Origin: Psammoneis japonica
Taxonomy: Eukaryota
DNA length: 64,000 bases
Assembly (NCBI GenBank): GCA_008632985.1
Contig: QPGO01000080.1
Location: 62,001-126,000 of the forward strand
Direction: 5' to 3'
The translations under genes and the position numbers were made by a program. The notes beneath the pieces are model-generated. The model was not told where the DNA came from and ran no database searches. It worked only from the letters and a program-made list of their open reading frames with translations. This document shows positions 7,108 to 64,000 of this stretch, in pieces (the stretch's first letter is position 1; the number at the start of each line of letters is the position of its first letter).

Positions 7108-7129
7108 CACTCCCCCATGATCAGGGCCG

Positions 7130-11466: not shown

Positions 11467-11527
11467 TTTGTAGTTTCGTTTCTGTAGATTTCGTTACCTC
11501 GCACAATGTGCGGGAGCAATGTCACTG

Positions 11528-13375: not shown

Positions 13376-13655
13376 GCTACAGCAGCTGGCCGCCATTGTT
13401 TACGACCGTTTCCATCGAAACCAAAAACCAAAATGCCATGCCAGCCGGTGTCACTCAAGCCTGAGATTTTACACCATGCATGTTCCAACATACGACTATG
13501 AAGAATAAATTTAAATTAGGGGCTTATTTCTTAACCCAATGGGAAGTCATTGTCGAAAGTCACAGAGAACACTAAATAATCGTGAGCCAGCTAAAATTCA
13601 TTTATTTTTTGGAGCAAATGCAGATTGTGCTCTCATTTCGTGCTGTCTGTTAACC

Positions 13656-24721: not shown

Positions 24722-25564
24722 TTAAACAACGTCTTCAGAGGCTATAAACACGTCAGAAGAAGGAGTAAGCGGGCGATTGACAGGAGTTGGTCCACTGCCT
24801 CCTCGAGTTGGACCCGGCGTTGGTTCTGGCGTAGGTCCAGGCGTTGGTTCTGGGGTCGGTCCAGGCGTTGGTGCTGGAGTTGGGTCGACTGTAGGTCCAA
24901 GTGTCGGTTCTGGCGTAGGCAACGGAGTTGGTTCTGGAGTTGGTTCGATTGTAGGTCCAGGCGACGGTTCTGGCGTAGGGAACGGAGTTGGTTCTGGAGT
25001 TGGTTCGATTGTAGGTCCAGGCGACGGTTCTGGCGTAGGGAACGGAGTTGGTTCTGGAGTTGGTTCGATTGTAGGTCCAGGCGACGGTTCTGGCGTAGGT
25101 AACGGAGTTGGTTCTGGCGTAGGTCCAGGCGACGGTTCTGGCGTAGGTAACGGAGTTGGTTCTGGAGTTGGTTCGAGTAGGTCCAGGCGACGGTTCTGGC
25201 GTAGGTAACGGAGTTGGTTCTGGAGTTGGTTCTGGCGTAGGTCCAGGCGACGGTGCTGGAGTGGGCGCGGGGGTGGGGTTGGGAGTGGGGTTGGGAGTGG
25301 GCGACGGTGTTGGCGCGTCTGTCTTCTTTCCTTTTTTCCTTTTTTACCTTCCTGTAGAAATCTGTTCTTCTTCTTCTCGGATACGACCGGTTCTTGAACA
25401 TCGAAAGACGGCTCAATGATCAATTCGCCAAATGCGTTGTAGCTGACGACACTCCGTCCTCTCACCGAGTTGTAGGCATCGTACCCGTCGGAAGCCCATG
25501 CCGGGGCCTGAAGGAGTGATAGCACCAAAAGAGATTGCCAGGACGACAAGCACAAGAACTTCAT
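24722..25564 (-). CDS. Secreted Pro/Thr-rich repeat protein (PTPEPT/PSPGPT) with an RXL site and Lys-rich segment; cell-wall/EPS candidate
   Basis: Signal peptide [24 protein letters not shown], then [23 protein letters not shown] and ~60-bp tandem repeats. Two apparently compensating frameshifts at ~25340 and ~25175. Confidence 0.75.
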
Positions 25565-26545: not shown

Positions 26546-27247
26546 CTACTCATTCCACTGCTCGGAGCGACGATTCTCTTCACCGTTAGCGGTATACTTT
26601 GGCTCTGAGCGACGATTCCATTCACCGTCAGCGGTATGCATGATCGCCTCACTGACGACACCGATGTACGTATGATCAAAGTCATCACTTGCTTTGAACC
26701 CGTCGCTGTTTTCATCAAAGTCAGCACTTGCTTTGAACCCGTCGCTTTTTTCATCAAAGTCAGCACTTTGGTCGCTGCTGTCACTTTCGCGGCGACCTCG
26801 GTCGCTACTTGGATGTCGGGGACGTCCCGAAGATGGACTTGGACGAGAACGTGTAGGCGCACGAGTTGGTTCTGGTGTTGGTCCCGGCGTTGGTCCTGGC
26901 GTTGGTCCCGGCGTTGGTCCGGGTGTGGGTCCTGGCGTTGGTCCCGGCGTTGGTGCAGCTGTATCTTTCTTCCCTGCCTTTTTCCCGTTTTCCTTCTTCC
27001 CTTCCTTCTTCCCTGCCTTCTTGCCATTTTCTTGCATGCGCCTTTTCTCGTTATATTTTCTTGGAACTTCCCTGCTCGGTGGTAGCTCTTCTTCTTCGTC
27101 CTCAGTGTGTGTATCGACGATCAACTCTCCGAACGCATTGTAGTCAACGACGCCTTTCACCAGTTCTCGTCTCTCCTCAAAAGGTGACGCCTGCAGGAGT
27201 GGCAAGAGAAGAAGAGAGGCCAATTGAGAGCACCGCAAGAGCTTCAT
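26546..27247 (-). CDS. Tandem paralog: secreted protein with RRMQ, (GKKx)n, (PTPG)n and an acidic Ser/Asp tail
   Basis: Signal peptide MKLLRCSQLASLLLLPLLQA, then [35 protein letters not shown] repeats and SADFDE repeats. Confidence 0.8.
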   Translation of the reverse strand: MKLLRCSQLASLLLLPLLQASPFEERRELVKGVVDYNAFGELIVDTHTEDEEEELPPSREVPRKYNEKRRMQENGKKAGKKEGKKENGKKAGKKDTAAPTPGPTPGPTPGPTPGPTPGPTPGPTPEPTRAPTRSRPSPSSGRPRHPSSDRGRRESDSSDQSADFDEKSDGFKASADFDENSDGFKASDDFDHTYIGVVSEAIMHTADGEWNRRSEPKYTANGEENRRSEQWNE

Positions 27248-33060: not shown

Positions 33061-33129
33061 GAACTGTGATGGCAGTTCAAAATAGAAGGATCATCTCTCG
33101 TCTCTCCGCTCCGAACATCATCAGAATGC

Positions 33130-36100: not shown

Positions 36101-36780
36101 ATGTGAGCTGCAGTTGCCAAGAAGCTTTTGGATGGAGCAGCACTACTCATGGCGGCAACCAAAGCAACCAGGCTCGAGAAGCACCTTGTGAGGGCAGCTC
36201 ACATGCCTCAAAATTCAGCTGGACAAGGCCCTCCAAATGAAGGAGGTGCCCAATGGACAGCGCCCTTGGTGCGGTTGATAATTTAGAGCTGATGGCTCCA
36301 GAGCTGAGTGCCCCCAGCTGTCGTGCTGTGTGTTGACCCCTGCCCAACCTCCTGTGCTGTGTTGTGCTGTGCTGTGCTGAAAAAACTTGTGGTGAGCAAC
36401 GAACAAAACAGCAAAGAAAATTTGCACTGCAAACCTGCCACCAACCCATTGTTTGACATTGAAAACAATGCTTCAGATTGTGTGAATGACAAGGAGGACA
36501 TGTGTTTGACCAAGATTCGCTCCATTTTGATGCTCCTTTCTAAAAGATGGGGCCTCAAATGGCCGGTGGGGCGTGTGATCCAGGACAACAAGAGAGCCAC
36601 ACTGTGAATCGCATGCCTTGATTGACTCCAAGGACTCATCAAAAGGAGCTGTGCAATCTGTCAATGAAGAAGGAACTCATTCCTTCCAAACAGCAGCAGG
36701 AGTGTTCCACTCAGGATGATGGGTGATGCTCAGAAACGACCTCCGCTCCGGAACGCTGGGGAGTGCTTTGCTCCCTAATT
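33130..36780 (+). mobile_element. Degenerate TpA/CpG-depleted retroelement remnant with a gag-like segment and a possible LTR end plus PBS near 33320
   Basis: ...GATGACA followed by TTTGGCGGTTCCAGC (PBS-like). Gag-like CPTF..IEVLLHIE..TTG..ELFGHFE..KW at 35036-35473. Composition matches the other repeats. Confidence 0.5.
35213..35267. repeat. (ACTGG)11 microsatellite inside the gag-like remnant
   Basis: Perfect pentamer array, read directly. Confidence 0.95.
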
Positions 36781-37082
36781 GTCACAGTCACTAAAAATGT
36801 CATTCGTGACGTGTACAAGATCGAGCTATTATGCCTCAACTTCACTGGTCATCATGAAACAATTGTGAAGGACTGTGTCATATGTCATCGGCATAAAAAC
36901 TTGTTAAGGGCGGTGCGGTGCGACGAAGACGCAACTTTTTGTCGTAAATGAACATATTACGAAAGAGAAACTTCTTTGCTCCTTGTAATTAACATGGTTA
37001 CTAAAAATGTCATCAGTGACGTGTACAAGATTGAGCTATTATGCCTTCACGTTCACGGGTCATCAATTAAACAATTATGAAG
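36766..37082. repeat. Imperfect ~105-bp direct repeat (36766-36870 and 36974-37082)
   Basis: Shared core ctaaaaatgtcat..gtgacgtgtacaagat.gagctattatgcct. Confidence 0.8.
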
Positions 37083-48873: not shown

Positions 48874-49119
48874 ATCGTCTTAATTCTCCTTATTCGATGA
48901 CAACACTTTTCACGCTAACACCAAGTGCTAAAACGATACCTTCCTATGAATACACTCAGTGTGCGAGTTTCTTTACGATGTTGTAGGAGGAAATCGAACG
49001 AGCTCGGATTCGAGTTTTTCTGGTCGGGTCGACATGCGGTGTGTGTGGGATCTAAAGAAGGATGTCGTATGTTGCGAGAAGCGAACCCATCTCCAAGTGA
49101 GCGCAGAGTTCGTCAACCG

Positions 49120-52100
49120 AAACATCGGATCCCCGACTCAAGGAACGCGGTTCGCGGCACGACCGACTGAGATGAAACATTTGACAGCCTGGCAGAAGCT
49201 CTTGAGAGATGCCTTGTCATGGAGACCCACAAGAAGCAAAACCTTTTTGACACATGCACCCCCATTGTTGCTTGGAGCACTGCCCATTTGCTCCTTGCAC
49301 CAAGTCTCATTTTGAGCTGGCAAGCTGCGGACATTCTCCCATGCAGGGGCACCCACTTGCCCCTCATGGCTTCCGGTCTGGTGCAGAAGGTCCCAAATGT
49401 TCTTTCCGGCAAGCAATCACTGCCTCATCAACCATGCCAAGTGCTTTCTCAACAGGTGACAACAGCTCTGGTCCCACAGTTGTGGGTTTGTTGTGACCAA
49501 GGCGGAGTCACCTTGGTGTGCTGATCAATTTTTTTTGCTGTTTTCTCACCAAGCCCCTGGCTTGAGAGCTCTTCCAGAGCAGCAGCAGGCGGAAGGTCCA
49601 AGGTCAGCAGATCATTGGAAATGTTGCAGCTGGGCAAAGATGCAGGAGCAATTTGCAAATCTTGTGCCAATTGTGTGAGAGCTCTCCAGTTTGTGATTTT
49701 GTGGCTGATCATTGAAGGACGAGACATCTCCGCTGTGTCTGTCTTTCTGCCATCAGAGTTGTCAAAATTCAAAACTTTCATGCCACTTTGATCCCATGGT
49801 TGTTGAGCTAATTGCTTTGAGGCAGATGCAGGCCTGTCAATGGTGGGTGGATTGTTGGGGAGATGTCATCCCATGTGAAGCACTGGTTTCTGGCAGGTTG
49901 AGCTGATTGCTTTGAGGCAGATGCAGAAATGTCAATGGTGGGTGGGTGGGTGGGTGGGGAAATGTCATCCCCATGTGAATCACTGGTTTCTGGCAGAGAT
50001 GTGCATGGAATGATGGCTTTTTTGTGGCACTCACCATCTTTGCCTCTCAGACAGCTCTTCCAATTGTGTTCAGCACAGTTGTGCAAAGAGCAGCTGTTGA
50101 AAATGTGGTTTGCTGCTTGCTGGAAGATCATCTCCAGATCTCCAGCAGCAGTTGATCTTGTTTTGCTAGACAAACATTCCTGCTGGACAAGACATCTGGC
50201 AAGTGGTCTGCAGCAGGCAGCCAAGGCATGTGCCGTGCAAGTCTCTGGGGGGCTGGCACAGCAGAGACCATCATTTCTTTTGTCTCACACAAATGGAGTC
50301 CCATCAGCTGGACCCACGTTTGCTGTTGCTCAATTTGCCCCCTCAGAAGTCAGCAACATTGTCTTGCATGTCAGCTTGAAGAAAAAAGTGCAACATGTTT
50401 GGCAACTGCAGGGTGTGCCGCTGCTTGCAATGACATTTCTTGATTGCAAATTGCCCTCCAGCCATCAACAACTCAGCACATTCATCCACATTGAAATGCA
50501 ACTGCTGTGAAAACACTTGTTGAGCTGATGGACAAGTTTGAAGCTCAGCACAGAAGCCAAGATGGATGAGCCAGCAAAATTTCACCAACCCACTTGCACC
50601 CTTCTCTGGACAAAACTGCTGTTGTCTCTTTTTGTGGCTGTCAATGAAAGTGATGGCATCAGAAGCATTTGCCACTTTAGATTCTCTCCCATTTTGCTCC
50701 AAGAGCTTGTGGAAGTTGTCACAAAGTGCAAGACTTTTGAGGGAGAGAACCCCAATTGCATGCTGGGCTCAAGCCTTGATGTTGATGGGACCTGGCAAAC
50801 TCATGCTTGCTAATCATCCAAAATGGAAGCAAATGACAATGAACAAGAAGATGCTGGACAAGTTAATTTTGGGAGGAGGACCTGTGCAACTCCAAGGCTT
50901 TCCTTTTCTAGAAGAAGTCAGCAGTCATTGCACTCCAAAACACATTCTTGTGCCCAGCTGTGTCCCAATTGTGCCCCAAAATCTGGGTTTCTCTTTGGCA
51001 CATTTCTGCGCAACATGTTGCAGACTTGTGTCCTTGTTTGAGGCATGTGCAGAGCAAATGTGATTGGTCACAAGGATTTTTGCATGTGCAATTCTAAAAG
51101 AAAACAATCAGGAGCTTGTTGCCAATGAACTTGGAGTTCTCCTGGACACAAGGATGAGACACATTTGGTCAATTGTTGTTTCATGCACACCTGTCTTTTC
51201 CCATGTTTCTTGTCATGACTCTTTCCTCTGGCATGCATGTCCCTTGCAACAGGGCTTTTTCCTTGGACAATCAATTTCATGTTGGGACACAAAAATCTTG
51301 ATGCTTTTTTCAACAGCTTTGTCTGTGCCTTTTTGATTTAATGGCCTGTTGCAGGCTGGATGGTGCATCACAATGACAAAAATGAGCAAGATCACTTGAA
51401 ACAACCATTTTGGCAAAGGGGTCCATTGCACACAAGTCAGGAGCCTGTGCACAACCTCAATCAGTGGAGTTGTCTCTCCTTGCATTGAAAGCAAATGCTT
51501 GATTTGTGAAATGTTTCATTTCAAACAGCGCTCCACAGATGATGAAGCCAAAAATCCATTGAAGTTGTGTGAGACATTCATTCAGGCAATCACATGCCAC
51601 TGAATCAGCAAGGTTCCCAAGACAATGAAATGAAGTTTCATCACTCCAATTCTCTTGGGTGCCTTGGTGCCAAACAAAGCCCCCAAGAATCCTGATTTGA
51701 AGCACTCCAAGTGGTTGCATTCAAGGCACCCCAATGCTTCTTCCCAAAGCCTGGGCAGAAATCACATGGTGTGTTTTGCTTCCTCCCACGGCCACCTTGT
51801 GCAATTCAAAGTCCTGAGTGAAAGTTGGCTTGGCAGCCAATGCATGAGAAAACATGAATTCATGCCCAAAGGAATTGCCACAGTTTGCACCCCAATTGAC
51901 AGCTCTTTGTTTAAAGTGCTGCATTTGGGGTTAGAGAAAGGGCAACTTGCCTGTGCCAGGGGTGTTTTGAGGTTGTCAACAAACCTGCCATGACACAATT
52001 CCGTCATTGATTTGGTTTCAAGAGCTGCTTGATCCATCAGAACACATTGTTGACTTTCCACTGCATCTTGGATGCAATCATGCAGCAACTCCTCCTTTGA

Positions 52101-55100
52101 CACGTCATTCATTCTCTGATTCATTAAAATGTCAAAGACATCTAGAAAGAGAGTGTTCAATGCTTTGCTCTGGATGTGACTGCTTTTTGCCTCTGCTGAA
52201 AATGCTGCAAGAGCAATGTTGAGATCTTCAAGAAGAAAAGCACAATGCTGACAACAGATTGCCTGCTGTGCTGCCTGGCTTTTAAGCTGCTGAGCTTCCA
52301 GCACATGCCAAGCACACACTGCAAAAGATTTTTTGTCAGAACAAGCAATTGCAGAAGTGTTTTGTGTGGCTGTGTTTCTGAGTCCTCCACTCCCAAGCAA
52401 AAGCTTGCATGCACCAGCAACTTGTCTTGTCAAGTGCCTTTGTCTTGACGGCATTTTCATTGCTGGCTCTGCTTGGCCAACAAAAACAGCAAATGTTCAA
52501 CCACTTGTCATCAAATGTTGAGCTGCACCACAAAAGCACTGCTGTTGCTGTCAACACAGGCAAGAAGGCCATGGCTGCAAGCGAGCTTTAGTGCACAACA
52601 AAAGCTGTTGCTGCAGGCACCCTTGTTTTTGGCTCTTGAAGCTCCTTCTTTGTCCTCCATGCTCTCCTGAAGTTTGGCCCAGCCAGCATGTCATTCTGTG
52701 CAGCATGGTTTGTTTGCTCTGTGGTGGGCTCTCTTCTTCTTTGATGCAGCAGATGCTGTTGGTTGAAGTCAGGGTGCCAAACACAGTTGCTTCCTGCCTG
52801 GAACACATCATGTGGATTATCAACAGCACAGCACAGTGGAAAGGGGGGTCAGCGCATGTTGCAAATCTTGGCCCCCGGCAGGGGCATGACTTCACTTTTT
52901 TCTTGTGCCACTCCACTGCAGAGGACGCAGGTGGCAGGGCCATTGGGAGAACAAAAACTCTTTTGCCAGATCCAGGACATGATTGGTTGTGGATGGAAAA
53001 ACTGGCGCATGTGCACCCAGTCATTTGACACCTGACTTGGCGGTTGTGTGCAGTGTCAAACAACCTGAGGTGGCTTTCACAAGACAGCCAGCAAGATGGA
53101 GGCACACATGCCATTTGGTCCCAAAAAATGTCATGTTGCAGAAAAGCACAACCAGGTTTGCACTGGAACAGATCAATGCAGAATTCCACAGGGCCACTTG
53201 GTTCAGCAAAAGTCAATTGCCTCAAAGACGCTGGTTCAGCAAAAAAACGTTTTGGCTTGCCACTTCATTGCTTGTGGGTTTTGGTCTGTGGTGATTTCAT
53301 TCTTTTGTTGTTGGGAGACAATGTCACTTGTCAATGTGCTGGCCAAAGTTGTTTGCCAATTGAACTCATTTCAATTGCCAACCCTGTTCATTTTGATTGC
53401 CAACAACTGGTGGTTGAAATGAGCACTTTTGAGCACATTTGAGCATGCATGAGCAATTTGTGCACATTTGAGCCATGCAGCTCCTTCAGAACAGCATCAT
53501 GAACTCCACAGCATCTGTCATGGCACATGTTTTGTGCGCAATTGTGACACTTTCCAGAGGCACTCTCTGAGAGCATCTGGGGCATGTGCAGGGACATCTT
53601 AGCATGTGTGTGTCATGCGCACATGACAAGTCATTTCCAACAACTGAGTTTCTGTTGTGCTGCTTGGGTCCAACAAGCAAGCATGTTCACATTCATGACC
53701 ACACCAAATGGCAGCAAACATCACATTTGCACAAGCAGCAACCATGGACCTGCAGCACTCACAGCAAAAATTGATGAAAATGGCCACCAAACCATTGCCC
53801 GCTCCAGGCTTCAGAACAAAAAGAGACACCAGTTGCTCTAACAAAGTGGGCAAATCATGCCACAGTCACTAAGAAATTGACAAGATGTGACAGAAAAGTG
53901 TTGTTCAGCAACCCACAGGACTCTAGAAATTGGTGCGAGGGTTGCTCTGCACCATTTCCACTGAACTCCAAGCTGTTGATGGACCTGATGGCAATGAGGT
54001 CCATGGGATTTTTGGTCTCTGCGCTGCAGTCATTTTTCACATCATGATGTCTTTTTTGGAAGCTGGTCATTGTGAGTGTGTCATTTGCCAACAAGAGCAC
54101 CTTTTTGGGGAGTGTCTGGTGCTCAACAACACTGCCTTCCTTCATGCTCACTTGACTTGCTTTCACCAATTCCTCCAATGTGAATTGTGCTCCCAGGACA
54201 ACTCAGTTCAGCAGGTCATTGAGCAAGACTGTTGGGTTCATTGAGAATGACAGTCAAGGTCTCAACAATCTTCTCAGCAATGAATTTGTGAGCCTGTGCC
54301 TTGCAGTCACATGCATCAGAAGTTTTATGATGGAGGTGTTCATTGGCATGCTTGGCATTTTGCCAATGAAGTTGTCCATCTTACCAACATCATCTGACGC
54401 AGAGTCAACATGTCAGCAACACAAACTTGAATGAAATCCTTCATCAAGGACAAGTGGCCAACCAACATTAAGTTGTTCTGATGTGGACAGTCATGAATGA
54501 GGTTGAAGGGACGTTTTGCCCAAACTGAATGGAAATCAAAGAGGAGAACAGTCTTCAAAGCCTCACATTCCTGGCCATCACATTGGCAAACAATGCCAGG
54601 GAACTTGGAGTCAGCAGGAAATTCAGTCTTCTAAAGGTGCAAGAAGATTGTGAAAACCATCTGCTTGAGGGGTGAAAGAAGTTGCAGTGGGAGGTTGTCA
54701 GCAGTGTCCAAGCCACACGCAAAACCCCAATCACCACTGTCCTTGACAAAACACCACAGAGGGTGAACACAGATCCCACGGGTGAAAGCATGTTGCACAA
54801 CAGCTGTGCACCATGTTCAAACACCTTGGGGGAAATGTCATCACATGGGAGTGGATCATGTGGGATGGCTTTAGCATCCAGAGTGGTCTGATGAATGTAG
54901 AGTGTCATTGCATGAGATGATGCATTCTGTGCCATTTTCACAGCAAAGACGACCATTTGACAGATGTGGAGCCAACAATTGGCCAGAGTGTTTTTGACCA
55001 CATCACTCAGGCACGTTGAAGTGAGGTCAGATTGAAAATTTGGCTGGCACTGGACTGACCAGAGTCAGATGATGAACCCACAGCATTGCCAGAAGAACTG

Positions 55101-55900
55101 GAAGACACAGACGCCTGAGCCGCAGCAAAGGCCTTCGTGACAGCAAGTTCATGCTGGTCTGGACCAGGGGTGCACTTGGCAGCAGCATCAGGGTCTGCAG
55201 CAGATGAAGAAGTCATTGAGGCAGGTGCCAGTTTTGAAGAGGTAGAAGCAGGGAACCATTTGTTGGAGATGTTGTTTCAGCCCACATGTGCTTCAATTCT
55301 GGCTCAAAAGAAGAGACCAACAAGTGCACCACCAACATGAACAAAGATGGCATTGGTCTTGCGCCAGATCACTGGATTCATTTCCTCTTAGAGAGACTTG
55401 ATTTCAAGGCACTTCCAGTGGTCCCCAGAGACATTGACAAAGAGAGGAACCTCTTGGAAGATGTCTTTGATGATGCTTCTGTCCACCGTGTGAATGGCGC
55501 TGGGGTTCTGAGAGTTTTTGAAGGATCGTCTTACGGACAGTCACAACAATGGCATCACCACATGAGCCTCTGGGGACACAATCATTCAGAAGATCTGCAG
55601 GAACAGCAATTTTGTCCAAACAAAGCTGGTCAAGGAAGACATGAGCATCTCAGACAATGGGATGCTGGTTGAATTCAACCAGAATCATCGTTGCCTCATC
55701 GGGGGGTTTGTTGCTCTGTTTCATCATGGCGGCACTTGAAAAAAGTGAGCATAGAAGCCAGCACTAATTCCACAGAAAAGTTGTTCCCAACAATTTCAGA
55801 AATTGGTGGCAAAAAATGGCAGTCCTGAAGCTGACGATTCTGCAACGGATGGGAGCGCCGTGGGTCTGAAAACACAAGAAACGGGTGTTCTGATGACAGA
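49120..55900 (-). mobile_element. Large degenerate unclassified repeat/TE, TpA- and CpG-depleted, with remnants of minus-strand coding sequence
   Basis: Sharp compositional borders and fragmented Tyr-poor reading frames. Internal ~95-bp tandem duplication at ~49803-49996. Confidence 0.55.
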
Positions 55901-56502
55901 AGAATAACGTGTGGGCATTCACAACCCATCGGAATCCCGATAAGCTATCCGACCTAACAAGATACTAGGACAATGATAAACGTGGCACTAGTGATGAAAG
56001 AAAGGAAAAGTGAGAGAAAGAGATCCGATGAGATCTCTCGTCCTCTACGGTATCTACTAGATGCCCAAATGTCTCACTCATCGGGTGTGCCAACAGCACA
56101 CATGACCCAATCACATCCACCACTGAATCGGATGTCCAACATACTACTGCATCAAAGCATTTTATGTCGGTGAAATCCAGCACATCTAAGAGCAAGAAAA
56201 GAACAACAAATAGCTTGTGGAGAAATAAAAATTACAGTAGTCAACACGAAATAATGTCCAAAATGTAGCTTGCTGGGAGCTTCTTGAGAAGTGCCTTGTG
56301 CACTCAGAGAACGTCTTTGGAGCGAAAGTCGTGCTGACTATACTCATCGTGCTTCATTCAAGGAAACAGCATGGATGAAAACATCGGTGCTTCTCAATTG
56401 CTACGGTATAAGGACAATGTACCGACGCATGTGGATTGATATCTTTATATACGTACTGCACGACTAGACCTACCGCATTGATTCCGAGCGCAATTATTAA
56501 TA

Positions 56503-57855
56503 TCACCCGAGTTTCTCCACCAAGGATTGCAATTGCGGCACATTCATTCCAAACGTAATGACTTTGACCGCCGTCTGCGTCGTGCTCAATACTGACTGTT
56601 GCAAATCTGCGTGCATGTCTTGGAAATCCTGCAACACTTGTGTTTGTATTTCTAGCAAAGTCATGCCCTGCTTGCGCTTTTCATGAATCTCCGAGAGCGA
56701 TTCCAATAGTGAGTCCATGCCTTGAATGAGTTTGACGAATAGTCCATTCATTTGTCCAAGTACCAAATTTTGAATGATTCCCGCCAATCTCGACACAATT
56801 TGATCTCCCATGGCATTTTTATCTGCCAAAGTTTCCTTGGTTTCCTTTCCCTTGTTGGAAAGTGCTTGACGAATCTTGTTGGTTGTATCGCATCCAGTTT
56901 TGGCTACCTTGTTAGTGACAGCACCATTTGTATCCATGGTTTGATTCAATTGCTGTTCCGCAGTATCAAGCATTTCATCGGTTGCCGTTAGTGCTCCGTC
57001 CAAGGCTTGGTCGGCGGCTTGCGTCACGCGCTCGTCCATGAGTTGTACGACCACCTCCTTGGCGGAAGCCTTGTGTGAGTCGACCAAGTCCCAGGCTTGT
57101 TTGCGAAGTTCAAATAGAGTGTCGGCGGTCTGTGTTGATTCTTTGTCCTTGTCCAATTTTTCGACAATTTGTTGAATCACATGCGCCACCTGATTTGCCA
57201 CCAACCGACGAATGTACAAGAATTTTGATGGATGAAATCGTTCAAAACGAAAGGTCAATACGGCGGCATTGAGACAATTCAATACGTGAAATGTCGTAAC
57301 TGCTACCAAGAGATAATCTTGCTGTGTAGTTGCTGTCAACTTATCGTTGTCGTCTTGTTCATTCTCGTTTGCTACCGGAGTGCCATCTACATCTCCGTTA
57401 CGACTCGCGGCAGGAGTAGGGACGAGCTCAGTAGTATCACTATTACTTGCAGTCAAAGCAACAGTTCGATTCTCTAACCACTTTGTCAACGACTCGGTTT
57501 CCTTCGTTTGCGAGTAATCCGTGACGTAACTCTGTGCCAAGTCCTCAGCCATGCCCATGACTCTAGCGATAACCTCCAGCATAACATCCGTTACTTTGCA
57601 AGAAATTCCATTTTGAAGTTGCTGAATCAACACCGCACGATTTTTTTCAATCAATACATCCCTACTAGTAGTAGCAGAATTGCTAAAACACTGCTCCCAT
57701 TCTGCAAGCTGTCTCCAGTAATAATGAATGGAGTCATCATCATTGAGCGATGCGGCCTCGTAGCAAACCTCACGACGCCACTCCACTTCCCAGAGCTCAT
57801 CCTCCTCCTCATTTTTTTCAAGGCATGGTTCTTGTGCTGCTGCTGTGGCTGTCAT
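56503..57855 (-). CDS. Hypothetical helical/coiled-coil protein, 450 aa
   Basis: Long intact ORF with normal dinucleotide composition. No family recognised. Confidence 0.7.
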   Translation of the reverse strand: MTATAAAQEPCLEKNEEEDELWEVEWRREVCYEAASLNDDDSIHYYWRQLAEWEQCFSNSATTSRDVLIEKNRAVLIQQLQNGISCKVTDVMLEVIARVMGMAEDLAQSYVTDYSQTKETESLTKWLENRTVALTASNSDTTELVPTPAASRNGDVDGTPVANENEQDDNDKLTATTQQDYLLVAVTTFHVLNCLNAAVLTFRFERFHPSKFLYIRRLVANQVAHVIQQIVEKLDKDKESTQTADTLFELRKQAWDLVDSHKASAKEVVVQLMDERVTQAADQALDGALTATDEMLDTAEQQLNQTMDTNGAVTNKVAKTGCDTTNKIRQALSNKGKETKETLADKNAMGDQIVSRLAGIIQNLVLGQMNGLFVKLIQGMDSLLESLSEIHEKRKQGMTLLEIQTQVLQDFQDMHADLQQSVLSTTQTAVKVITFGMNVPQLQSLVEKLG

Positions 57856-58010
57856 TTTTTGATTTATGGTATTAGGCCTCTGTTGAATAATGGTCTTCAG
57901 TGCGCAGGGTCGGTCATTGCCTACACAGTACCTGGAGTGAGTCAGTCGAGTGGAGGTGGTGGTGGAAAAGACACAACGGCATTCTGCTTCGATCGAGGGT
58001 ACAGGAAGTG

Positions 58011-58063
58011 GTCAGTCCCGCATTCTCGTGACTCAGTACTTTCCTACGGTGAAAATTGCGTAG
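58011..58063 (+). repeat. 53-bp inverted copy of the 5' terminus of the element-2 LTR
   Basis: 45/53 identical to the reverse complement of 63920-63972. Confidence 0.8.
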
Positions 58064-58320
58064 AGATCCGAAGATGACAAAAACGGTCCGCTAACTTCCG
58101 CTAACAATAACATTAAGGATGGATCTACGTGCTGCGGTCTGTTTTTTGGGAGCTCGTAATTTTATAAAAATAACCCGGATGCATCGTAGTAAATGCGCGC
58201 GCGTTCGCAAAAAAAAAATTCAGCGATGGGTCGAACTTTGTCCGTTCGCCAGACACCCTAGAAACAGGTATGACCATGCGCGACTTTTACCTTAACGACT
58301 GTAGATATGTCTATAGCCAG

Positions 58321-58446
58321 TCAAATGCCACTTGTCGGCCTTTCCCGGAAAGCCACCGCCAATCTCCCATAAGAAGCCCGATTTTGGCGAAAATTGGCGG
58401 TTTTTTCGACCTGACAACAGGGCACAGGTCGACAAGTGGCATTTGA
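58321..58446. repeat. 21-bp inverted repeat pair (58321-58341 / 58426-58446) at the edge of a TE block
   Basis: tcaaatgccacttgtcggcct versus aggtcgacaagtggcatttga, one mismatch. Confidence 0.75.
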
Positions 58447-58908
58447 AGCGCCAAATGTGCAGCTCTTGTAGCCGTCTGACAGCCCTCACGGGGTTTGACG
58501 AATGCATGAGTGTTCGGGGATGTTCCGAGGCAGGTCAAAATGATGCGGTGAAGTGCGGGAAAAATGCGAGCTGTTCCAAATTAGACCGCAGCACGCAGAT
58601 CCATCCTCAACTGCATGTGGCGCACATTGCATGTTCTTTGACATGTGAATGAACCACTTTAAGTGTTGGGTGCAGTTGCTTTGACGAACTTTGCCAAAAT
58701 GATGCTTGGCACTGCTTTGCACACAAAGCCACGGTGCTCCGTGCGACTCGTCTTTCGTTCGGAGCACCTTCCAATTCATCAAAATGACTGCATGCAATGC
58801 CCAAAATTTTTAATTCAAGCATTGACAAACAAAGAATGCATGTTGCATGCAGTTGACATTGTTGACAGCGGAAGTCATCTGACAGTTTTTGTCATCGTCG
58901 GATTCCTG

Positions 58909-59310
58909 TGCACTGTGCTCGAAGAACGAGCACAAACGAAAGTAGAACCAAGCATGAAAAGTGAAAATTGTGAGGTTGAATTTTGCTCTGTGATTTTTGG
59001 TTTCTCCGAATGAGTTCTCAATGGCCTAAAGCTTCTGCACTGCTTCTGCAGACAAAAGGCCTTTCGGAGAATGCATTCGCGACAACAGATTGTCCGGGTG
59101 CGATTGCCATTGACACGTGAGATGTCAACATCGTCAATCAATCGCACTTGCAATTTTTGACATCCGATCAACTCTGTGTGATCGTTCTGTCCTTTGCACG
59201 CATCCACGACTGTGGCGCGATTGACACACAAACAACACACAATTCTGAACATGTGTGCAACAGTCGCATGCTGCACCTGTGCAATTTTCACCGTGGGGAA
59301 GCACTGAGTC
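58909..59310 (-). repeat. 3' LTR of element 2, missing ~20 terminal bp; TpA-converted
   Basis: Colinear with 63552-63953 at offset 4643. Confidence 0.9.
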
Positions 59311-62300
59311 GATTTCCGAATGTCTTTTGAGAGTGACATTGTTTGTTTCTCACTTGACATGTGTGCATGGCATTGCGTCGAGTGTTCTCATTGACGTTCT
59401 TTGTTGATGTGAGCGCCAGGACCAATTGTCCCGCAGTGTCTTTCATTGTGTCGATTGCACACAGCATTGTGCCCAGCACTTGGTGTGCACTCTTTTAATT
59501 GCCATGGCATTCACTTTTACTTGCTTGTGGATTTCGTGTAGTTCTGGCTGGCTTCACATGCCATGTTGCTCTGCTGCACTTCCACGCATCGTAAGCAATT
59601 GACGATGTTCAAGAATGTTTTCTAACCATTTCGTCTTGGACAATCCTGGGATGGTTGTGAATTCCTTCATGGATTTTTTTGCACTTCAACCATCCATCAG
59701 TTGGATTTTAATCGTCATTTGGACATTTCTTTTTGACATGCCGGTGTCATTTTGTCATTCCGAAGGCACTTCTTTCGTGCACTGTGTGGACAAATGTCCA
59801 TTTTTGTGTTTTATTTCTGAATCTTTGGCACATCTCGTGTGACATTGTTTGTGTCTTGCCTCGCACATCGTACGTTGCAATCGTGCGGGTGCTGTGAGAT
59901 TGTTTTTTGCCAGTGTGAAGTGGATGCTGCAATGTCGTGCACCAGTCTGTCACAGAGTTTTTTTTCCAACCATCCTTTGACAAGGCAGTTTTGTCCTTGT
60001 GGCATGAGCATTTTTCGATTTTCGATCTCCCTCGCCTCCACGAAAAGTGTTCGTGTGACATGTCGCGTCCGACAAGTTGGAGGGAAATGTCTTCATCCCG
60101 TTTTAACGGCAGGACATTGTCGCAGGATTGAATTTTCTGTGGCAAGTCGGCTGATCGCGTCTGTTGCGACGATGTTCGCCTTGCCCTCGACGCATTTTAA
60201 TGCGGGGCTGAAGTTTTCCATTGTAAGTCGTCAATGCATGACCTTGTCCGTTGTGTCTTACAATCCGTGTGTGTGTGAATCTGTTGGCCAAACAGCACAT
60301 TTTGGAATTTTACAAGTGTTTTCGCCATGGCAGAAGTTCTTTTTTCCGTTGCAATGCATGATGTTGAAATGTCATGTGTGACAACAACACAGTTTGTGAT
60401 TTGATGCGCTCCATGTTTTCGGAGACTTTTCATTCTGTACTTGTCGTTTTGCCGTTTGACCCTTGTTGAGGTGGATTTGGCTGGAAGTGTGCAGGAGACG
60501 CGTTCCAGACGCAGGTGGGAATCCGTGTGACATTGGGCCCGCAGAATTCTACGTGCGAGCTCTGCATTAAAATTGTCAGGTAATTAAAATGTCAATGTTC
60601 GCCAACAGAAAATGAGGCAATTTTGCGAACGCACAAACTCGTCCATGATTGAAGAACATCATTTGTCACTTGGCTGGGTGCATTCTTCAGACATTGAAGA
60701 ATGCAACTGGCGCATTGTTGTTTCCACAAATTTGTCATGTAAAACGTCTGGGGCTTCGCAAAACAGCGAGTCTGGACAATTTTTTTGAAATGTTGCACGT
60801 AGAAATGCCGCACGAAACATGCGACGGATGATAAAAATTTTTTGTGTCACACGTCAGCACTGCGAGCTCCCACCTGGGGCTGGAACGCGTCAGGAGATCA
60901 TTGAGAGTGCATGTCTCGACAGCACCAACATGTGGCGACGAGATGTCGCAGTGTTCTTTGCGTTTTTCTCGTGTTGCGATTGCTTGAATCACCTCCATTT
61001 TCTTTGCAATCAATTTCACATCGTTGTGTGTGGAAGTCTTGACAATTTATTTCAAGTCAAATGGTGAAGAACCTTTGTTGTTGACCTTCCAAGTGACTGT
61101 TCCAGTCGTTTGAATGCCGTGCTGAGCTGTCACTTGTGCAGGTGACATTTTGAAGTCACTTTTTGTCGGGCACAAATGATCATTTGCAGTCGTTCTGACA
61201 ACTTCAAACCTGCCATGAGTTCGCTCATGTGTGGCACAAAAATGTCTGGGGCTCTGTGGCTTCTCGTTGGAAGTCCACAGTGCTCATTTTTTTCCCACGA
61301 CATGATTTTCGTGTGAGCACGACGTGTGCTTTTTTTATTTGACATGGTGGCACTCCACATTTGAATCAAATAGATTGCATGTGTGAAACGTTCTTGCTTC
61401 AACAGCATTTCCTGAACATTGGGCAAAGGACACACCACGTGTGCGAACCTTTTGCCAAGCTTCTGAGTGTCGGGCGCGGTCAACTCGACCTGTTTTCTTT
61501 GGACAATGAGTCTCAGAGCGACTCATTCAGAGCAGCTTCATTTTTAAGACTTCAATCTTTCACAACAGGTCAAATTCCTTTTAATTGGACGCCTCCAAAG
61601 GCCATGATGGGAGAAGGTTCTCACGCGTCGTGGAATCGCGTCAGATTTTCCACGATGAGATCCACTGGTTCTTCCCATGCATTCGTCTGAGGAACTTTTC
61701 AAAAAGATTTCAACCTCTTAAGAAGAAGATTGAGTTGGTTGTGTTCATTTGGGTTAGATGCATCGCCGTAGTTGTCACTTGATTAGGATCGATGGCGTGT
61801 TAATGTGAGTCGAGGACCATTGGTTCCGTTGTTAACTCTATTCACGGCATCATATTTTTCAATGTGATCGGTTTTCAGCTTGAAAACATCGGCATCGAAG
61901 AGGGTATGAACATTCTTCATAGGGTAATTGCTTCTTCCCATTTGATTTCTTCAATTACGTAGTCTAATATGATTACAAGACTGGACATTAAGTCGCGTCC
62001 CATGATCACATTAGTCGACCTTCAAGAAGATTTCGTGTTATCGACATATACTGTTTGAATATCAGTATGTCTTAAATTTGCATAGTGAGAACTGAATTCG
62101 GTTTCTACTATCAGTCGTAAAGAGCTCACCCTTGGTTTCCCAAGTTTTTTGGTGGCGGATATTTGGTTCTCAACTTTGCACGATTTGCGTAAAATCATGG
62201 GTGACGATGTTCTTTATCGAGAGAACACGTAGAAGCTTATTTTTTGCTTTTCTCAGAGAAGTAGTCATATAGACGGCGAGAATAGAACTCGTATAACATA

Positions 62301-63551
62301 CTATGATGTTTTTTCTGGGTTTCCAGACGTCCTGTAACGCTGTATACTCCTCGATCGGTGTAAATTTTTGATCGGACTCGATCGGGTCAATTTTTCTAAA
62401 TTGATAGTTTCATTCTCTAAGTGTTTTAGAGTCGTAATTTTCGCTCTTATTTTTTCGCTCCTTTGCTGAGGAACTCATTTTAATTTTTTTGTGAACTACC
62501 CAGTTCATTATGGGGTTCAATTCCTCTTTCACAGAGGTATTTCCTGCTATCGCCACGCCGCGTGCGATTGCTGTTAGAGTGTCATATTTTTGGGTCTCTT
62601 TTAGAGCCACCCTTGCACTCTTTTGCTAGTTCATTTTCAGAATAGCTTTAATCCGTGATGTAGGTATTCTTTTTTCAAAGATTGGACCTTGCATTCACTT
62701 TGGATTGTTCAGGTACCATATAGGAGACCATTTTGGGAACCAAATTTGGAACCTTTTTTATTTTGGAACCAACTGCGCTATCAGAGCCTGAGTTGATATG
62801 TTTTTTCGTCATGGACGTCATGAACGACCTCTTGACTACTCAAACCTCAATCAGCTCGTCAAGGGTATGATCCAGTAGTTCAATATTTTGGACAGTAGGC
62901 TGATGCTGCCATCCTTGCGGTGCGAGTGATAGCTGATAGCTCACGGCTCGGTTTCCCGCTAGATTCAACTTAGAATCGATTGAAGGGTCGTATAGAGACT
63001 CTTCATTGACCTCTTGGGTCGAATAGGCACTCTCTTGCTGCTGAGAGCCTTTGGTTTCTTCAGATCATCTCGAAAAAAATAATTCTGATTCTGAAGTGCA
63101 ATTCCTGGAAAGACATGAGATAAGAGACTCTTGACGTACTTTCCAATGGTTCCTTCTTGCTCTTTGGACTCGAGACTCGTCGATTCGGTCTGAAAAACTC
63201 TCCAATAGTCTCTCCTTGCAAAGTAAATGTATTTCTCGGATCTGATCGACTCGGGACTTGCATTCTCTGCAACCATGACTTGGTGTAGATTTTTTGATAA
63301 TGCGGTGTACTTGTAGAGTCCTTGATCCTTGGATGCTTGGAATAGACCGTATTAGAACGAATCTTGTCATTTGCTAGACGAAAAACAGCGTTCCATCTTG
63401 AGGTACTGCTCGGATTGAGCTCCTTCCGCTCGGAAATCGATTCTAGCATAACTGATGCGATTCGTCCCTGTTTATAGAAGAATTTACAAAGGCACATTAG
63501 TTAAAATTTTCATTTTCCGTGCTTTTTACCTTCTGTGGTGTGTATACACAA

Positions 63552-63973
63552 TGCACCATGCTCGAAGAACGAGTATAAACGAAAGTAGAATCAAGTATGA
63601 AAAGTGAAAATTATGAGATTAAATTTTACTCTGTGATTTTTGGTTTCTCCGAACGAGTTCTCAATGGCCTAAAGCTTCTATACTGCTTCTACAGACAAAA
63701 GGCCTTTCGGAGAATATATTCGTGACAACAGATTGTCCGGATACGATTGCCATTGACACGTAAGATGTCAACATCGTCAATCGATCGTATTTGCAATTTT
63801 CGACATCCGATCAACTCTGTGTGATCGTTCTGTCCTTTGTACGCATCCACGACTGTGGTACGATTGACATATAAATAACATATAATTCTGAATATGTGTG
63901 TAACAGTCGCATGCTGCACCTGTGCAATTTTCACCGTGGGGAAGCACTGAGTCACGAGTGGGCGGGACTGACA
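63552..63973 (-). repeat. 5' LTR of element 2; mostly TpA-intact
   Basis: Begins TGTCAGTCCC on the minus strand and ends ...TGCA. Confidence 0.9.
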
Positions 63974-64000
63974 ACTTCACATTTACATGTGCTTGCCTCA

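Follow-up and report, generated by a model that had tools for sequence, protein, structure and literature searches.

Probable Post-Integration Conversion of TpA to CpA and TpG in Transposon Tracts of the Diatom Psammoneis japonica

Within the 64-kb stretch of Psammoneis japonica DNA analyzed here (the window), discrete tracts have lost nearly all of their TpA dinucleotides and are enriched in CpA and TpG. We consider it quite probable that this reflects a DNA-level process that acts after integration, treats both strands alike, approaches saturation within sharp-edged tracts of transposon DNA and spares genes. Such targeted erasure of TpA is a rarely described kind of mutation, reported so far only in an unrelated alga. 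Its direction is read from coding DNA, where tyrosine positions have turned into cysteine and histidine.

TpA-Depleted Tracts in the Window

Profiles of observed over expected (O/E) TpA and CpG along the window, a check proposed in the initial annotation of this DNA, resolve discrete TpA-poor tracts, with the host genes spared (Table 1). Seven tracts (22.2 kb) contain 140 TpA, against 1797 in the remaining 41.8 kb; their TpA O/E is 0.04–0.2, their CA/TG O/E 1.7–1.9 and their GC content 0.46–0.55. Ten host ORFs have a TpA O/E of 0.48–0.58 and 7–15 RTAY per kb, which bears out the earlier claim that neighboring genes escape.

Table 1. Coordinates of elements, tracts and islands in the window.
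Feature	Position	Strand	Remarks
Old island, left part	3400–6668	.	split by element 1; 13 TA and 19 CG in 3269 bp
Element 1 target-site duplication	6672–6675 and 11960–11963		4 bp, AAAG
Element 1, Ty3/gypsy retrotransposon	6676–11959	-	gag, PR, RT, RNase H, integrase in order
Element 1 LTRs	6676–7107 and 11528–11959	-	TG...CA
Old island, right part	11960–13399	.	4 TA and 16 CG in 1440 bp
Old island	33200–36799	.	14 TA and 44 CG in 3600 bp
Old island	49100–55899	.	30 TA and 62 CG in 6800 bp
Upstream flank of element 2	58055–58908	.	itself a genome repeat; contig depth 1000–4000 vs. 65 for unique sequence
TpA-depleted tract, CpG intact	58400–61699	.	32 TpA in 3300 bp
Element 2 3′ LTR (copy A)	58909–59311	-	TpA-poor, 2 TpA; inside depleted tract
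Element 2 internal region	59312–63551	-	degraded, Ty3/gypsy-like, without long ORF
Element 2 RNase H remnant	about 60144–60349	-	by homology
Element 2 RT remnant	about 61202–61648	-	by homology
Element 2 protease match	about 61938–62090	-	weak (E = 0.04)
Element 2 5′ LTR (copy B)	63552–63954	-	TpA-normal, 25 TpA

The loss depends on the flanking bases. Among the 140 TpA surviving in tracts, 81 are YTAR, 56 mixed and 3 RTAY, whereas the 1797 outside divide into 296, 965 and 536, respectively (chi-square p = 3e-34); about 277 RTAY would be expected in 22.2 kb of tracts. By context, about 99% of RTAY, about 90% of mixed sites and about 50% of YTAR have been lost. With the two LTR pairs pooled, 25 of 39 TAY half-sites have changed versus 7 of 35 TAR half-sites (p = 1.6e-4). 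The initial annotation was right that TpA is hit, but not every TpA is, RTAY being affected far more than YTAR. Its claim of loss on both strands agrees with the products, RCAY and RTGY occurring in balance in each of the tracts.

In four old islands TpA and CpG are both nearly erased. CpG O/E there is 0.05–0.2, a CpG decay in its own right that very likely results from deamination of 5-methylcytosine (5mC). CpG loss has a flank preference opposite to that of TpA, RCGY surviving and YCGR being lost. No protein family is recognizable in the islands at 33200–36799 and 49100–55899.

Element 2 and Its LTR Pair

Element 2 has the features of a Ty3/gypsy element, namely TG...CA LTRs and remnants of RT and RNase H in order, with a weak protease match; no integrase was detected in it. 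The RT and RNase H remnants place it on the minus strand, so that the copy at 63552 is its 5′ LTR, as annotated initially. The direct repeats (58909–59310 and 63552–63953) align over 402 bp with 0 gaps; one further base in each copy (G at 59311, A at 63954) would give TG...CA termini, and the LTRs probably end there.

All 34 differences between the two copies are transitions, and at 30 of them the 58909 copy has C or G and the 63552 copy T or A (binomial p = 6e-6). The 25 TpA of the 63552 LTR read CA (14), TG (8), CG (1) or TA (2) in the 58909 LTR, which has 2 TpA in total. Taking the TA-rich LTR as the start, A/T has changed at 24 of 50 positions inside TpA versus 6 of 191 elsewhere (Fisher p = 4.7e-14). 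ApA has changed at 1 of 71 sites and GpA-equivalent sites at 3 of 60, the few non-TpA changes showing no TpC preference, and 3 of 21 CpG differ. An alignment free of indels and a hand count of 23 of 25 TpA converted to TG, CA or CG had been reported; the former is borne out, the latter is exact on recount, and the example strings quoted are found in the LTRs. The "about 9" other differing sites are indeed all transitions, yet they number 10 positions outside TpA.

What did not survive is the assertion that this pair directly reveals the direction of change. Element 2 has no target-site duplication (TCCTG on the left, CGAGT/ACGAG on the right), so its two LTRs may derive from different insertions. 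Moreover, among the matches listed only 3 of the 34 sites can be polarized, and they split 2:1: at 58975 and 59080 the contigs of the family agree with the TA-rich copy, favoring TpA loss, whereas at 63680 they agree with the TA-poor copy, the 20 other-copy contigs there carrying G without exception.

The TA-poor LTR lies in a tract (58400–61699) in which TpA density is about 0.7 per 100 bp, against 5–6 per 100 bp on both sides, with edges that are sharp within 100 bp. The tract starts 500 bp beyond the LTR in a different upstream repeat, takes in the 3′ LTR together with the pol half of the element and ends within element 2; its CpG O/E is 0.8–1.1. Unique sequence is close by, the unique contig adjoining the upstream flank stopping at 58054. 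The remainder of the same high-copy element (61700–63954), matched by thousands of sample contigs, is untouched. That the process is repeat-targeted, as had been supposed, does not follow from these data: half of an element present in many copies escapes, and the tract edges ignore repeat borders. The edge at 61700 could itself be a recombination joint. We suggest that the TA-poor LTR is the portion of element 2 that falls inside a tract; most differences between the LTRs would then be TpA losses in the 58909 copy, and a few would be ordinary G/C to A/T changes in the 63552 copy.

Other Copies in the Sample Contigs

The contigs compared stem from runs of one sample with an unrecorded library type, which is probably the assembly's own sample, so that the base support they lend is not independent. 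Polarization from other copies covers the 40 sites listed, 985 more rows being unlisted. Among the best-supported sites listed in the tract half of element 2, the window has G/C against A/T in the family at 13 and the reverse at 6; the corresponding numbers in the spared half are 0 and 6 (Fisher p = 0.005). Contig depth is 26–52 thousand for the TA-rich LTR versus 16–18 thousand for the TA-poor LTR. Run X1, with contigs of up to 315 kb, contains exact matches to 62% of the 31-letter words sampled from 56500–63990. At many private tract sites the depth in support of the window's letter is 50–100, close to the unique-copy value of 65; at 14 of the 40 listed sites, the letter of the window is matched by no contig.

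Tyrosine Positions in Element 1

In element 1, TpA is depleted at 7000–9399 and 10600–11959 and spared at 9400–10599. The 28 differences between its LTRs, again all transitions, include 8 sites with TA in one copy and TG or CA in the other, plus 7 TG-versus-CA doublets; 28 CpG are common to both LTRs, and 5 single CpG changes occur. CpG decay would yield 0.11 such doublets (P = 4e-11), and even a simple model of independent TpA loss would yield 2 (P = 0.005).

When the TA-poor pol of element 1 is aligned to P0121, the closest homolog bearing Tyr, the 36 Tyr positions of the latter read Tyr in no case, Cys in 12, His in 12 and other residues in 12. In the other direction, none of the Cys (0/10) or His (0/14) positions of P0121 reads Tyr in element 1. 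Twelve further homologs give the same picture, with 0–1 Tyr kept. RT has HLDD in place of the catalytic YxDD, and the six columns in which at least 50% of 124 homologs have Tyr read C, W, C, C, H and H. Eight homolog Tyr positions in the TA-normal protease part read Tyr (4), Cys (1), His (2) or another residue (1); the protease ORF is open across 289 codons, without stops of the type expected from repeat-induced point mutation (RIP). The RT remnant of element 2 keeps the homolog Tyr at 0 of 9 positions.

Gypsy relatives derived from metagenomes have a TpA O/E of 0.52–1.06 in 79 of 79 loci, in a search that is biased against hypermutated relatives because its peptide patterns contain Tyr. Among 150 representative RT homologs from public assemblies, 5 are without any Tyr and the remaining 145 have at least 1.9% Tyr. 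The three Tyr-free homologs present in the RT alignment all have C/H at its conserved Tyr columns, with differing choices between C and H.

Discussion

We propose a model in which TpA would be rewritten to CpA or TpG after integration, in discrete tracts of transposon-derived DNA that is presumably silenced, and much faster than CpG decays. Young elements would accordingly lose TpA and keep CpG, old islands would lose both, and the endpoint would be DNA with YpR steps that are almost all CA or TG. The tracts may represent chromatin domains, and the process that erases TpA may serve as a genome defense. The initial proposal of an A:T to G:C conversion at TpA, after integration and at the DNA level, is supported by the replacement of Tyr by Cys or His inside the tracts but not outside them, by the tract that crosses into the flank, by the TpA-normal state of related elements elsewhere and by the strand symmetry of the products.

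The reverse direction appears highly improbable. Here the TA-poor state would be ancestral, and RIP-like C to T changes at RCA/TGY would have made the TpA of the 63552 LTR and of the TA-normal half. Read this way, the LTR pair likewise gives a context effect (23 of 84 CpA/TpG changed versus 7 of 103 other C/G), the 20 of 20 other-copy contigs at 63680 share the G of the TA-poor LTR, and 6 of 6 best-supported private transitions listed in the spared half run from G/C to A/T. However, the ancestral pol would need His or Cys at catalytic and conserved Tyr positions and zero Tyr codons, and the native TpA O/E would be near 0.1, whereas all 79 relatives lie at 0.52–1.06. The "mutated" state would match the composition of host genes, the oldest and deadest islands would carry the fewest mutations, and the open protease frame of element 1 carries no RIP-type stops. 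An ancestral TG/CA state, which the initial annotation had named as its refutation, is thus disfavored by the conserved Tyr positions and the TpA-normal relatives. Very unlikely, too, is an artifact in which a long-read base caller miscalls modified TpA as CA/TG in DNA that is not mutated. In its favor, neither the assembly nor the runs have their sequencing technology on record, 14 of the 40 listed sites have no agreeing contig, and domain-wide modification would suit near-total loss with sharp edges. Yet the exact 31-letter words and the 315-kb contigs are unlike noisy reads, private tract sites are supported at near unique-copy depth, and other public assemblies contain homologs that lack Tyr and show this C/H pattern. 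The same changes are also described as arising de novo in NovaSeq-sequenced lines of Bigelowiella natans (bioRxiv 10.64898/2026.01.13.699255).

Editing before integration, either ADAR-like A-to-I editing of RNA or editing of cDNA, with element 2 as a recombinant of edited and unedited copies, would be compatible with the missing target-site duplication and with a crossover at the inner edge about 61700; we give it very little credence. The tract does not stop at the LTR but reaches 500 bp beyond it, where the DNA belongs to another repeat, and old islands, unrelated in sequence, are in the same state. Element 1, which is one insertion with a target-site duplication, has lost different TpA from each of its LTRs. 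A-to-I hyperediting of RNA should put A to G on the sense strand alone, stay within the element and be shared by both LTRs where R/U5/U3 are copied; with RCAY and RTGY in balance throughout the tracts, it was rejected, and the earlier judgment that ADAR-type editing is unlikely is upheld. ADAR favors a 3′ G, and TAR is refractory here. In favor of editing, U is described as the 5′ neighbor that ADAR prefers (bioRxiv 10.64898/2026.01.13.699255). Error-prone patch repair by a Y-family polymerase in methylated chromatin (Pol eta, WA to WG), one of the mechanisms put forward initially, fares no better and is scarcely credible. Pol eta is known from somatic hypermutation for A:T to G:C changes with a TA hot spot, and the tract half shows a mild excess of non-TpA changes from A/T to G/C (13 vs. 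6 among the sites listed). But WA includes AA, and ApA changed at 1 of 71 sites as opposed to 24 of 50 for TpA; about 99% loss of RTAY calls for directed, repeated attack rather than copying errors, and strand bias is absent. As for the chemistry of post-integration TpA loss, TpA is self-complementary, so attack on A and attack on T leave the same sequence, and an adenine deaminase and a thymine modification fit the palindromic target equally well. Deamination of adenine to hypoxanthine in 5′-TAY-3′ by a DNA deaminase of the TadA/ADAT2 type is a candidate that we put forward tentatively, at a little short of even confidence. If the phenomenon is real, attack on the thymine of 5′-RTA-3′ is conceivable though rather unlikely: TET/JBP-type marks (5hmU, 5fU or J-like) in silenced repeats would be read or repaired as C, and every count fits either base. 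5-Formyluracil mispairs with G, and the SAR group includes dinoflagellates as well as diatoms and Bigelowiella. A dinoflagellate TET/JBP homolog is described as making repeat-enriched 5hmU, the blocking of which activates transposons, and older work cited there reports T to be replaced preferentially in TA and TC (PMC11572971). Against this reading, a TpC preference is not visible among the few non-TpA changes, and we found no literature support for T to C change at such rates from 5hmU or its kin.

Several known systems resemble the diatom tracts in part. Fungal RIP also produces dense, context-specific, post-integration transitions that wreck transposons on both strands and leave genes alone. 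It turns C into T at CpA, however, creating TpA and AT-rich DNA, whereas the diatom process destroys TpA and leaves GC about unchanged. Membership in RIP was rejected on the opposite direction in coding DNA and on tracts of intermediate GC with almost no TpA, in agreement with the distinction drawn initially. RIP further needs duplication and a sexual cycle, and a duplication trigger was discarded as well, given the untouched 61700–63954 part of a high-copy element and a tract that starts in a different repeat. CpG decay by 5mC shares with TpA erasure a self-complementary YpR target and the products TG and CA, but it cannot remove TpA, lags far behind TpA loss in the window and has the opposite flank preference. 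With CpG kept in the element 2 tract and at most of the LTR sites, it was dismissed as the source of the element 2 signature, again as anticipated. The 5hmU of dinoflagellates, as described, is a mark on T in the transposon DNA of a SAR alga, connected with silencing and with an old report of TA/TC preference; it is a modification, whereas the diatom change is a mutation, and the parts of that source covered here report no TpA loss with 5hmU (PMC11572971). The diatom tracts also share with APOBEC/ADAR footprints clusters of transitions fixed in retrotransposon copies, made by deaminases in the animal case, but the diatom changes postdate integration, affect both strands alike and run across element borders. 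In animal retroelements, APOBEC and ADAR act on cDNA or RNA that is yet to be integrated, and their footprints are strand-specific and reach no further than the element.

The closest counterpart is the process that the preprint of Mettrop et al. (2026) describes for B. natans (bioRxiv 10.64898/2026.01.13.699255). According to this source, 230 of 231 mutations in mutation-accumulation lines were TpA to TpG/CpA in integrated viral regions, at a de novo rate about 1000-fold over background. Over the long term the footprint consists of clusters that are depleted in TpA and enriched in CpA and TpG, with RT and DDE domains overrepresented; as the enzyme, the authors propose an ADAT2-like deaminase. 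By this description, B. natans resembles the diatom in showing almost only A to G and T to C changes, always at TpA and on both strands, with foreign or mobile DNA hit beside a normally mutating genome. The three hallmarks recur in the diatom: A:T to G:C transitions (34 of 34 and 28 of 28 LTR differences; Tyr codons to Cys/His), confinement to TpA (24/50 vs. 6/191), to which the diatom adds RTAY far above YTAR, and locality (140 TpA in 22.2 kb of tracts vs. 1797 in 41.8 kb). The main targets described differ, being an integrated giant virus and virophage in B. natans and LTR retrotransposons and unidentifiable islands in the diatom, as does saturation, with a TpA Rho of 0.45 in the virophage, far from saturated, versus an O/E of about 0.05 here. 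Tetranucleotide context, tract edges and the relation to CpG loss are described from the diatom, and a term search of the preprint found no B. natans counterpart. In B. natans the process was watched happening, whereas the diatom is known from the footprint alone. The initial annotation took the system to be undescribed; the signature is in print for B. natans, but our literature searches found no report of it in diatoms.

Psammoneis japonica is a pennate diatom, hence a stramenopile, and B. natans a rhizarian alga. It is possible, though we regard it as rather doubtful, that diatoms and chlorarachniophytes share an old, chromatin-guided defense that erases RTAY by enzymatic conversion on double-stranded DNA, alongside CpG methylation. 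If this were true, the conversion would fall either to a natural DNA adenine deaminase with sequence specificity or to a mutagenic system that marks thymine and is related to dinoflagellate 5hmU; to our knowledge, neither is an established eukaryotic genome-defense enzyme. Invaders would then end up free of TA and CG as "CA/TG-only" DNA, without Tyr codons or TAA/TAG stops.

TpA-depleted tracts in the window

The observed/expected ratio (O/E) of TpA is 0.43 over the whole window, but its distribution is bimodal. Host ORFs have a TpA O/E of 0.48-0.58 and a CpG O/E of 0.85-1.10, in agreement with the initial annotation, in which the neighbouring genes were spared. Seven tracts nearly emptied of TpA (22.2 kb in total) hold 140 TpA, against 1797 in the other 41.8 kb, and on 100-bp maps their edges are sharp to one bin. 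In the old islands the O/E of both TpA and CpG is about 0.05-0.2 and CA plus TG amount to ~24 per 100 bp, with GC unchanged at 0.47-0.50. The young tracts sit in recognisable retrotransposons.

Depleted tracts and remnants of element 2, with what each has lost or matches
Feature	Position	Strand	Description
Old island	3400-6668		TpA and CpG both lost
Old island	11960-13399		TpA and CpG both lost
Old island	about 33200-36799		TpA and CpG both lost
Old island	about 49100-55899		TpA and CpG both lost
Young tract	7000-9399		TpA lost, CpG kept; in element 1
Young tract	10600-11959		TpA lost, CpG kept; in element 1
Young tract	58400-61699		TpA lost, CpG kept; in and beside element 2
Element 2 RT remnant	61202-61648	minus	protein match
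Element 2 RNase H remnant	60144-60349	minus	protein match
Element 2 protease		minus	weak protein match

BLASTN among the old islands and the elements found no DNA common to them, and tblastn of the islands against the element 1 proteins and 14 long homologs gave nothing below E = 1e-3. Since TA-free DNA is devoid of TAA and TAG stops, numerous ORFs of 90-240 codons overlap across the six frames of the tracts (including 33200-36799 and 49100-55899), and gene finders would probably predict false genes from them. These tract ORFs have no protein-family match; with Pfam, 92 ORFs taken from element 2 and the islands had matches at chance level only (E 0.009-0.03).

Element 2 and its LTR pair

Repeat search and BLAST recover the LTRs of element 2, a degraded retrotransposon, as a single gap-free direct repeat pair of 402 bp (58909-59310, LTR A; 63552-63953, LTR B), with TG...CA ends once extended by one base (59311 G, 63954 A). 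All 34 positions at which they differ are transitions. LTR A has C/G where LTR B has T/A at 30 positions and the opposite at four (binomial p = 6e-6), three of these four being CpG in B versus TpG/CpA in A and the fourth part of a TG-vs-CA doublet at 58914-58915. The 25 TpA of LTR B, compared to two in LTR A, read in the latter as CA (14), TG (8), CG (1) or TA (2), and the hand count of 23 changed sites in the initial annotation was exact. From B to A, changes affect 24 of 50 A/T positions inside TpA, but only 1/71 in ApA, 2/60 in CpA and 3/60 in GpA context (TpA versus the others, Fisher p = 4.7e-14).

Element 2 has no long ORF. Its matches to proteins of element 1 and of public homologs, all on the minus strand, succeed each other as protease, RT and RNase H. 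This identifies it as a degraded Ty3/gypsy-like element, with LTR B as the 5' LTR, as had been assumed. A tRNA-like primer site (PBS/PPT) was not obvious by eye beside the LTRs. There is no target-site duplication (TSD; flanks TCCTG versus CGAGT or ACGAG), so that the identity of the two LTRs at insertion, a premise of the earlier reading, is not secured for this pair. Its left flank (850 bp, 58055-58908) is itself repeated. An inverted match of 55 bp and 87% identity (58005-58059 versus 63924-63978) comprises the last 30 bp of the LTR and 25 bp of flank beyond LTR B, and contigs link 58908 to about 63942 via a short LTR-end-like piece. Copies of the LTR-end/flank junction thus exist at other places too, a hint of nesting or of a preferred target and a possible reason for the lack of a TSD. 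These contigs stem from a public run, probably of the same sample as the assembly, in which the element 2 family is very abundant (6459 contigs placed, with a summed depth in the thousands versus 65 for unique DNA).

The 3.3-kb tract at element 2 has one edge in a different repeat, 500 bp beyond the end of the element, and the other within pol. LTR A is TA-poor simply as a piece of element 2 that this tract covers. The 61700-63954 half of this high-copy element is untouched. Repetition by itself is consequently not enough to trigger the process, and the targeting of repeats as such, proposed earlier, is not shown. At the right end of the window (63900-64000) TpA falls to 2 per 100 bp and CA plus TG rise to 23; a further depleted tract may start just past LTR B.

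Element 1

Element 1 (6676-11959) is a Ty3/gypsy retrotransposon with protease, RT, RNase H and integrase domains and a 4-bp TSD (AAAG). It is inserted in an old island and has a spared, TA-normal middle (9400-10599). The RT ORF (8854-9546, minus strand) contains no Tyr in 231 residues and the next ORFs contain 1/398 and 0/223, versus 7/289 in the TA-normal protease ORF. The LTRs of this one insertion have 28 differences, transitions, among them 8 sites with TA versus TG/CA, 7 TG-vs-CA doublets, 5 CpG-related differences and 1 other. A TG-vs-CA doublet requires a TA or CG ancestor. CpG decay predicts 0.11 doublets (28 shared CpG, 5 single CpG changes; P = 4e-11) and TpA loss in both LTRs predicts 2 (P = 0.005). 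The latter fits far better, though imperfectly, and the remaining excess suggests that the action on these LTRs was patchy.

Target context, strand symmetry and order of loss

The process acts on DNA that is already integrated: one tract extends across the edge of an element, and two LTRs from one insertion are unlike each other. Its products are balanced between the strands in every tract (RCAY versus RTGY; 176 versus 174 in the largest, with R purine and Y pyrimidine). A strand bias at the RTAY sites within the LTR (9 CA, 2 TG) was dropped, as it is absent over whole tracts.

The target is wider than the TpA dinucleotide. Among the 140 TpA surviving in tracts 81 are YTAR, 56 mixed and 3 RTAY, whereas the 1797 outside comprise 296, 965 and 536, respectively (chi-square p = 3e-34). 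Based on the outside density ~277 RTAY would be expected in the tracts, and length-scaled context counts give a survival of roughly 11% for mixed sites and roughly 50% for YTAR. In the two LTR pairs the product is predicted by a half-site rule in which the A changes if a pyrimidine follows: YTAY became TG in 7/7 cases and RTAR became CA in 5/7 mutated cases, and changed half-sites number 25/39 for TAY versus 7/35 for TAR (p = 1.6e-4).

TpA is lost faster than CpG decays. The element 2 tract retains a CpG O/E of 0.8-1.05 after losing >80% of its TpA. At the island edges 33100-33400 and 49100-49200, the absence of TpA extends beyond that of CpG by 100-300 bp, a zone with 0 TA but 5-11 CG per 100 bp. 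The surviving CpG of the old islands are enriched 1.78-fold in RCGY and depleted to 0.47-fold in YCGR. This flank preference is opposite to that of TpA and argues for a separate process; at ~0.05-0.2 the CpG O/E is extremely low for 5mC decay alone, and a second, YCG-directed hypermutation may be involved.

Direction of change

An LTR pair cannot polarise itself, hence outgroups were used. The initial annotation had regarded the conversion as shown directly by the LTR pair; that pair, without a TSD, is no proof of direction on its own, and it is the outgroups that provide the direction. The GYH, GKYE, YLDD, LGY and NYY motifs of the Ty3 RT (4ol8) read GCC, GKCE, HLDD, LGH and NCC in element 1, and where at least half of 124 aligned Tyr-bearing homologs have Tyr (six columns), element 1 has C, W, C, C, H and H. 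Over 9543-7150 the 36 Tyr positions of the closest homolog, P0121, became 12 C, 12 H, 12 other and no Y, and none of its 10 Cys and 14 His positions is Y in element 1. In the TA-normal part 4 of 8 Tyr positions are kept (1 C, 2 H, 1 other), and twelve further homologs agree with this picture. At the codon level TAY to TGY corresponds exactly to TpA to TpG, and TAY to CAY to TpA to CpA. Judged from these motifs, an HLDD box together with a complete lack of Tyr could not have been the starting state of a working RT. The element 2 RT remnant likewise keeps the homolog Tyr at 0/9 positions.

Related gypsy loci from metagenomes have a TpA O/E of 0.52-1.06 in 79/79 cases, and one single 400-bp window in one of the 79 qualifies as a tract, although the search patterns contained Tyr and thus disfavoured hypermutated relatives. 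Other copies of element 2 were compared at the best 40 of 1025 places with another letter than the window's; at these 40, nearly all of the copies differ from the window. At these best 40 places the tract half has G/C in the window versus A/T in the family at 13 and the opposite at 6, compared to 0 and 6 in the spared half (Fisher p = 0.005). Contigs of other copies map to the LTR they resemble, which masks the states at TpA sites, and only 3 of the 34 LTR differences are polarised among the best 40 places: 58975 and 59080 go with copy B and 63680 with copy A. LTR B has the greater contig depth of the two LTRs, and at 61603 the window's CA stands against TA in the family. Places 60794/60795, considered as a further family TA, were rejected, being a TG-vs-CA doublet between window and family that is uninformative on direction. 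The few G/C to A/T changes of the spared half, including 63680, are read as ordinary mutation.

Mechanism and alternative explanations

The conversion of A:T to G:C is TpA-specific with a preference for RTAY, strand-symmetric and limited to tracts of integrated DNA. A RIP-like gain of TpA, with the TA-poor state being ancestral, is highly improbable, as host genes would then be in the mutated state and the most decayed islands would be the unmutated ones. Miscalled bases at modified TpA are also very unlikely: exact 31-mers of the stretch are present in a run with contigs up to 315 kb (probably of the assembly's own sample, library type not on record), and at private tract sites the depth agreeing with the window is near single-copy level. 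Tyr-free homologs also occur in other assemblies. No Tyr occurs in five (P0127, P0168, P0208, P0231, P0242) out of 150 RT homologs chosen as representatives from public assemblies (ENA, NCBI); in the other 145 it makes up at least 1.9%. Of the five, P0127, P0208 and P0231 are part of the RT alignment and show Cys/His in columns of conserved Tyr, so that the same hypermutation is visible in other data sets. ADAR-type RNA editing, already deemed unlikely in the initial annotation, is excluded by the strand symmetry of the products and the spread into flanking DNA. Overall, genuine TpA-erasing hypermutation of the DNA is likely in this window; the core of the earlier reading, a DNA-level change after integration, is supported with the amendments described.

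TpA being self-complementary, the sequence cannot reveal the underlying chemistry. TadA/ADAT2-type enzymes target the A after U33 in tRNA. Adenine deamination in TAY by such an enzyme acting on DNA is the route we tentatively favour, and it is also proposed by the authors of a preprint on Bigelowiella natans (bioRxiv 10.64898/2026.01.13.699255). A thymine-marking route is less probable; in its favour, the dinoflagellate literature describes a TET/JBP homolog that places 5hmU on repeats, with transposons silenced, and cites earlier work in which TA/TC was preferred (PMC11572971). Pol eta-type repair, another earlier candidate, fits poorly since ApA is not hit. The tracts would represent chromatin domains, presumably silenced, with methylation in the old islands. 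The effect would be defensive, given that every Tyr codon is removed and coding capacity is scrambled.

Relation to known systems

Fungal RIP and animal APOBEC/ADAR are, to our knowledge, the only textbook cases of targeted hypermutation in genome defence, and all of them work on cytosine or on RNA. The defence system supposed to be undescribed does have a recent precedent. TpA-aimed A:T to G:C conversion at the DNA level is the subject of one report, a 2026 preprint on a single rhizarian alga (bioRxiv 10.64898/2026.01.13.699255). In its B. natans mutation-accumulation lines 230/231 new mutations were TpA to TpG/CpA, in integrated giant-virus and virophage regions, at about 6e-7 per site per generation, and clusters depleted in TpA and enriched in CpA and TpG were enriched in RT and DDE domains. 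The signature is the same as in this window of a pennate diatom, whose host flavoprotein gene has its best match in Seminavis robusta (58% identity). The main text of the preprint mentions neither diatoms or stramenopiles nor trinucleotide or flanking context. A full-text literature search turned up no account of diatom transposons losing TpA. For Phaeodactylum tricornutum mutation accumulation, the mutational contexts described are a GC to AT bias and mutable CG, CC and TG, with no TpA hot spot among them (PMC6604790), and the available text of a diatom DNMT paper names RIP only via DNMT4 homology (PMC9998398). Given the shared signature and the lack of a diatom report, we file the finding under a very recently described kind. 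Relative to B. natans it adds a second eukaryotic lineage and, as targets, LTR retrotransposons; also new are near-saturation, sharp tracts, the RTAY rule and the loss of TpA ahead of CpG.

With a footprint near saturation on diatom LTR retrotransposons, the process would be no one-species curiosity and may date far back in the SAR group; the question would also shift to a group having genetic tools. Handles for finding the enzyme are the tetranucleotide rule (RTAY hit, YTAR spared), the sharp tract edges, which suggest chromatin domains, and the order of events, TpA first and CpG later. A natural sequence-specific DNA adenine deaminase would matter to base-editing research as well. In practice, TA-free DNA yields long false ORFs in all frames, protein-domain searches miss hypermutated transposons, and LTR-divergence dating is badly inflated (24/34 LTR differences of element 2 are TpA-related).

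Other features of the window

Two adjacent ORFs at 230-3031, each with a galactosyltransferase family 7 domain, are likely a tandem gene pair. Diverged tandem or dispersed repeats of 74-84% identity lie in or near minus-strand ORFs at 24805-25289 and 26853-26956.
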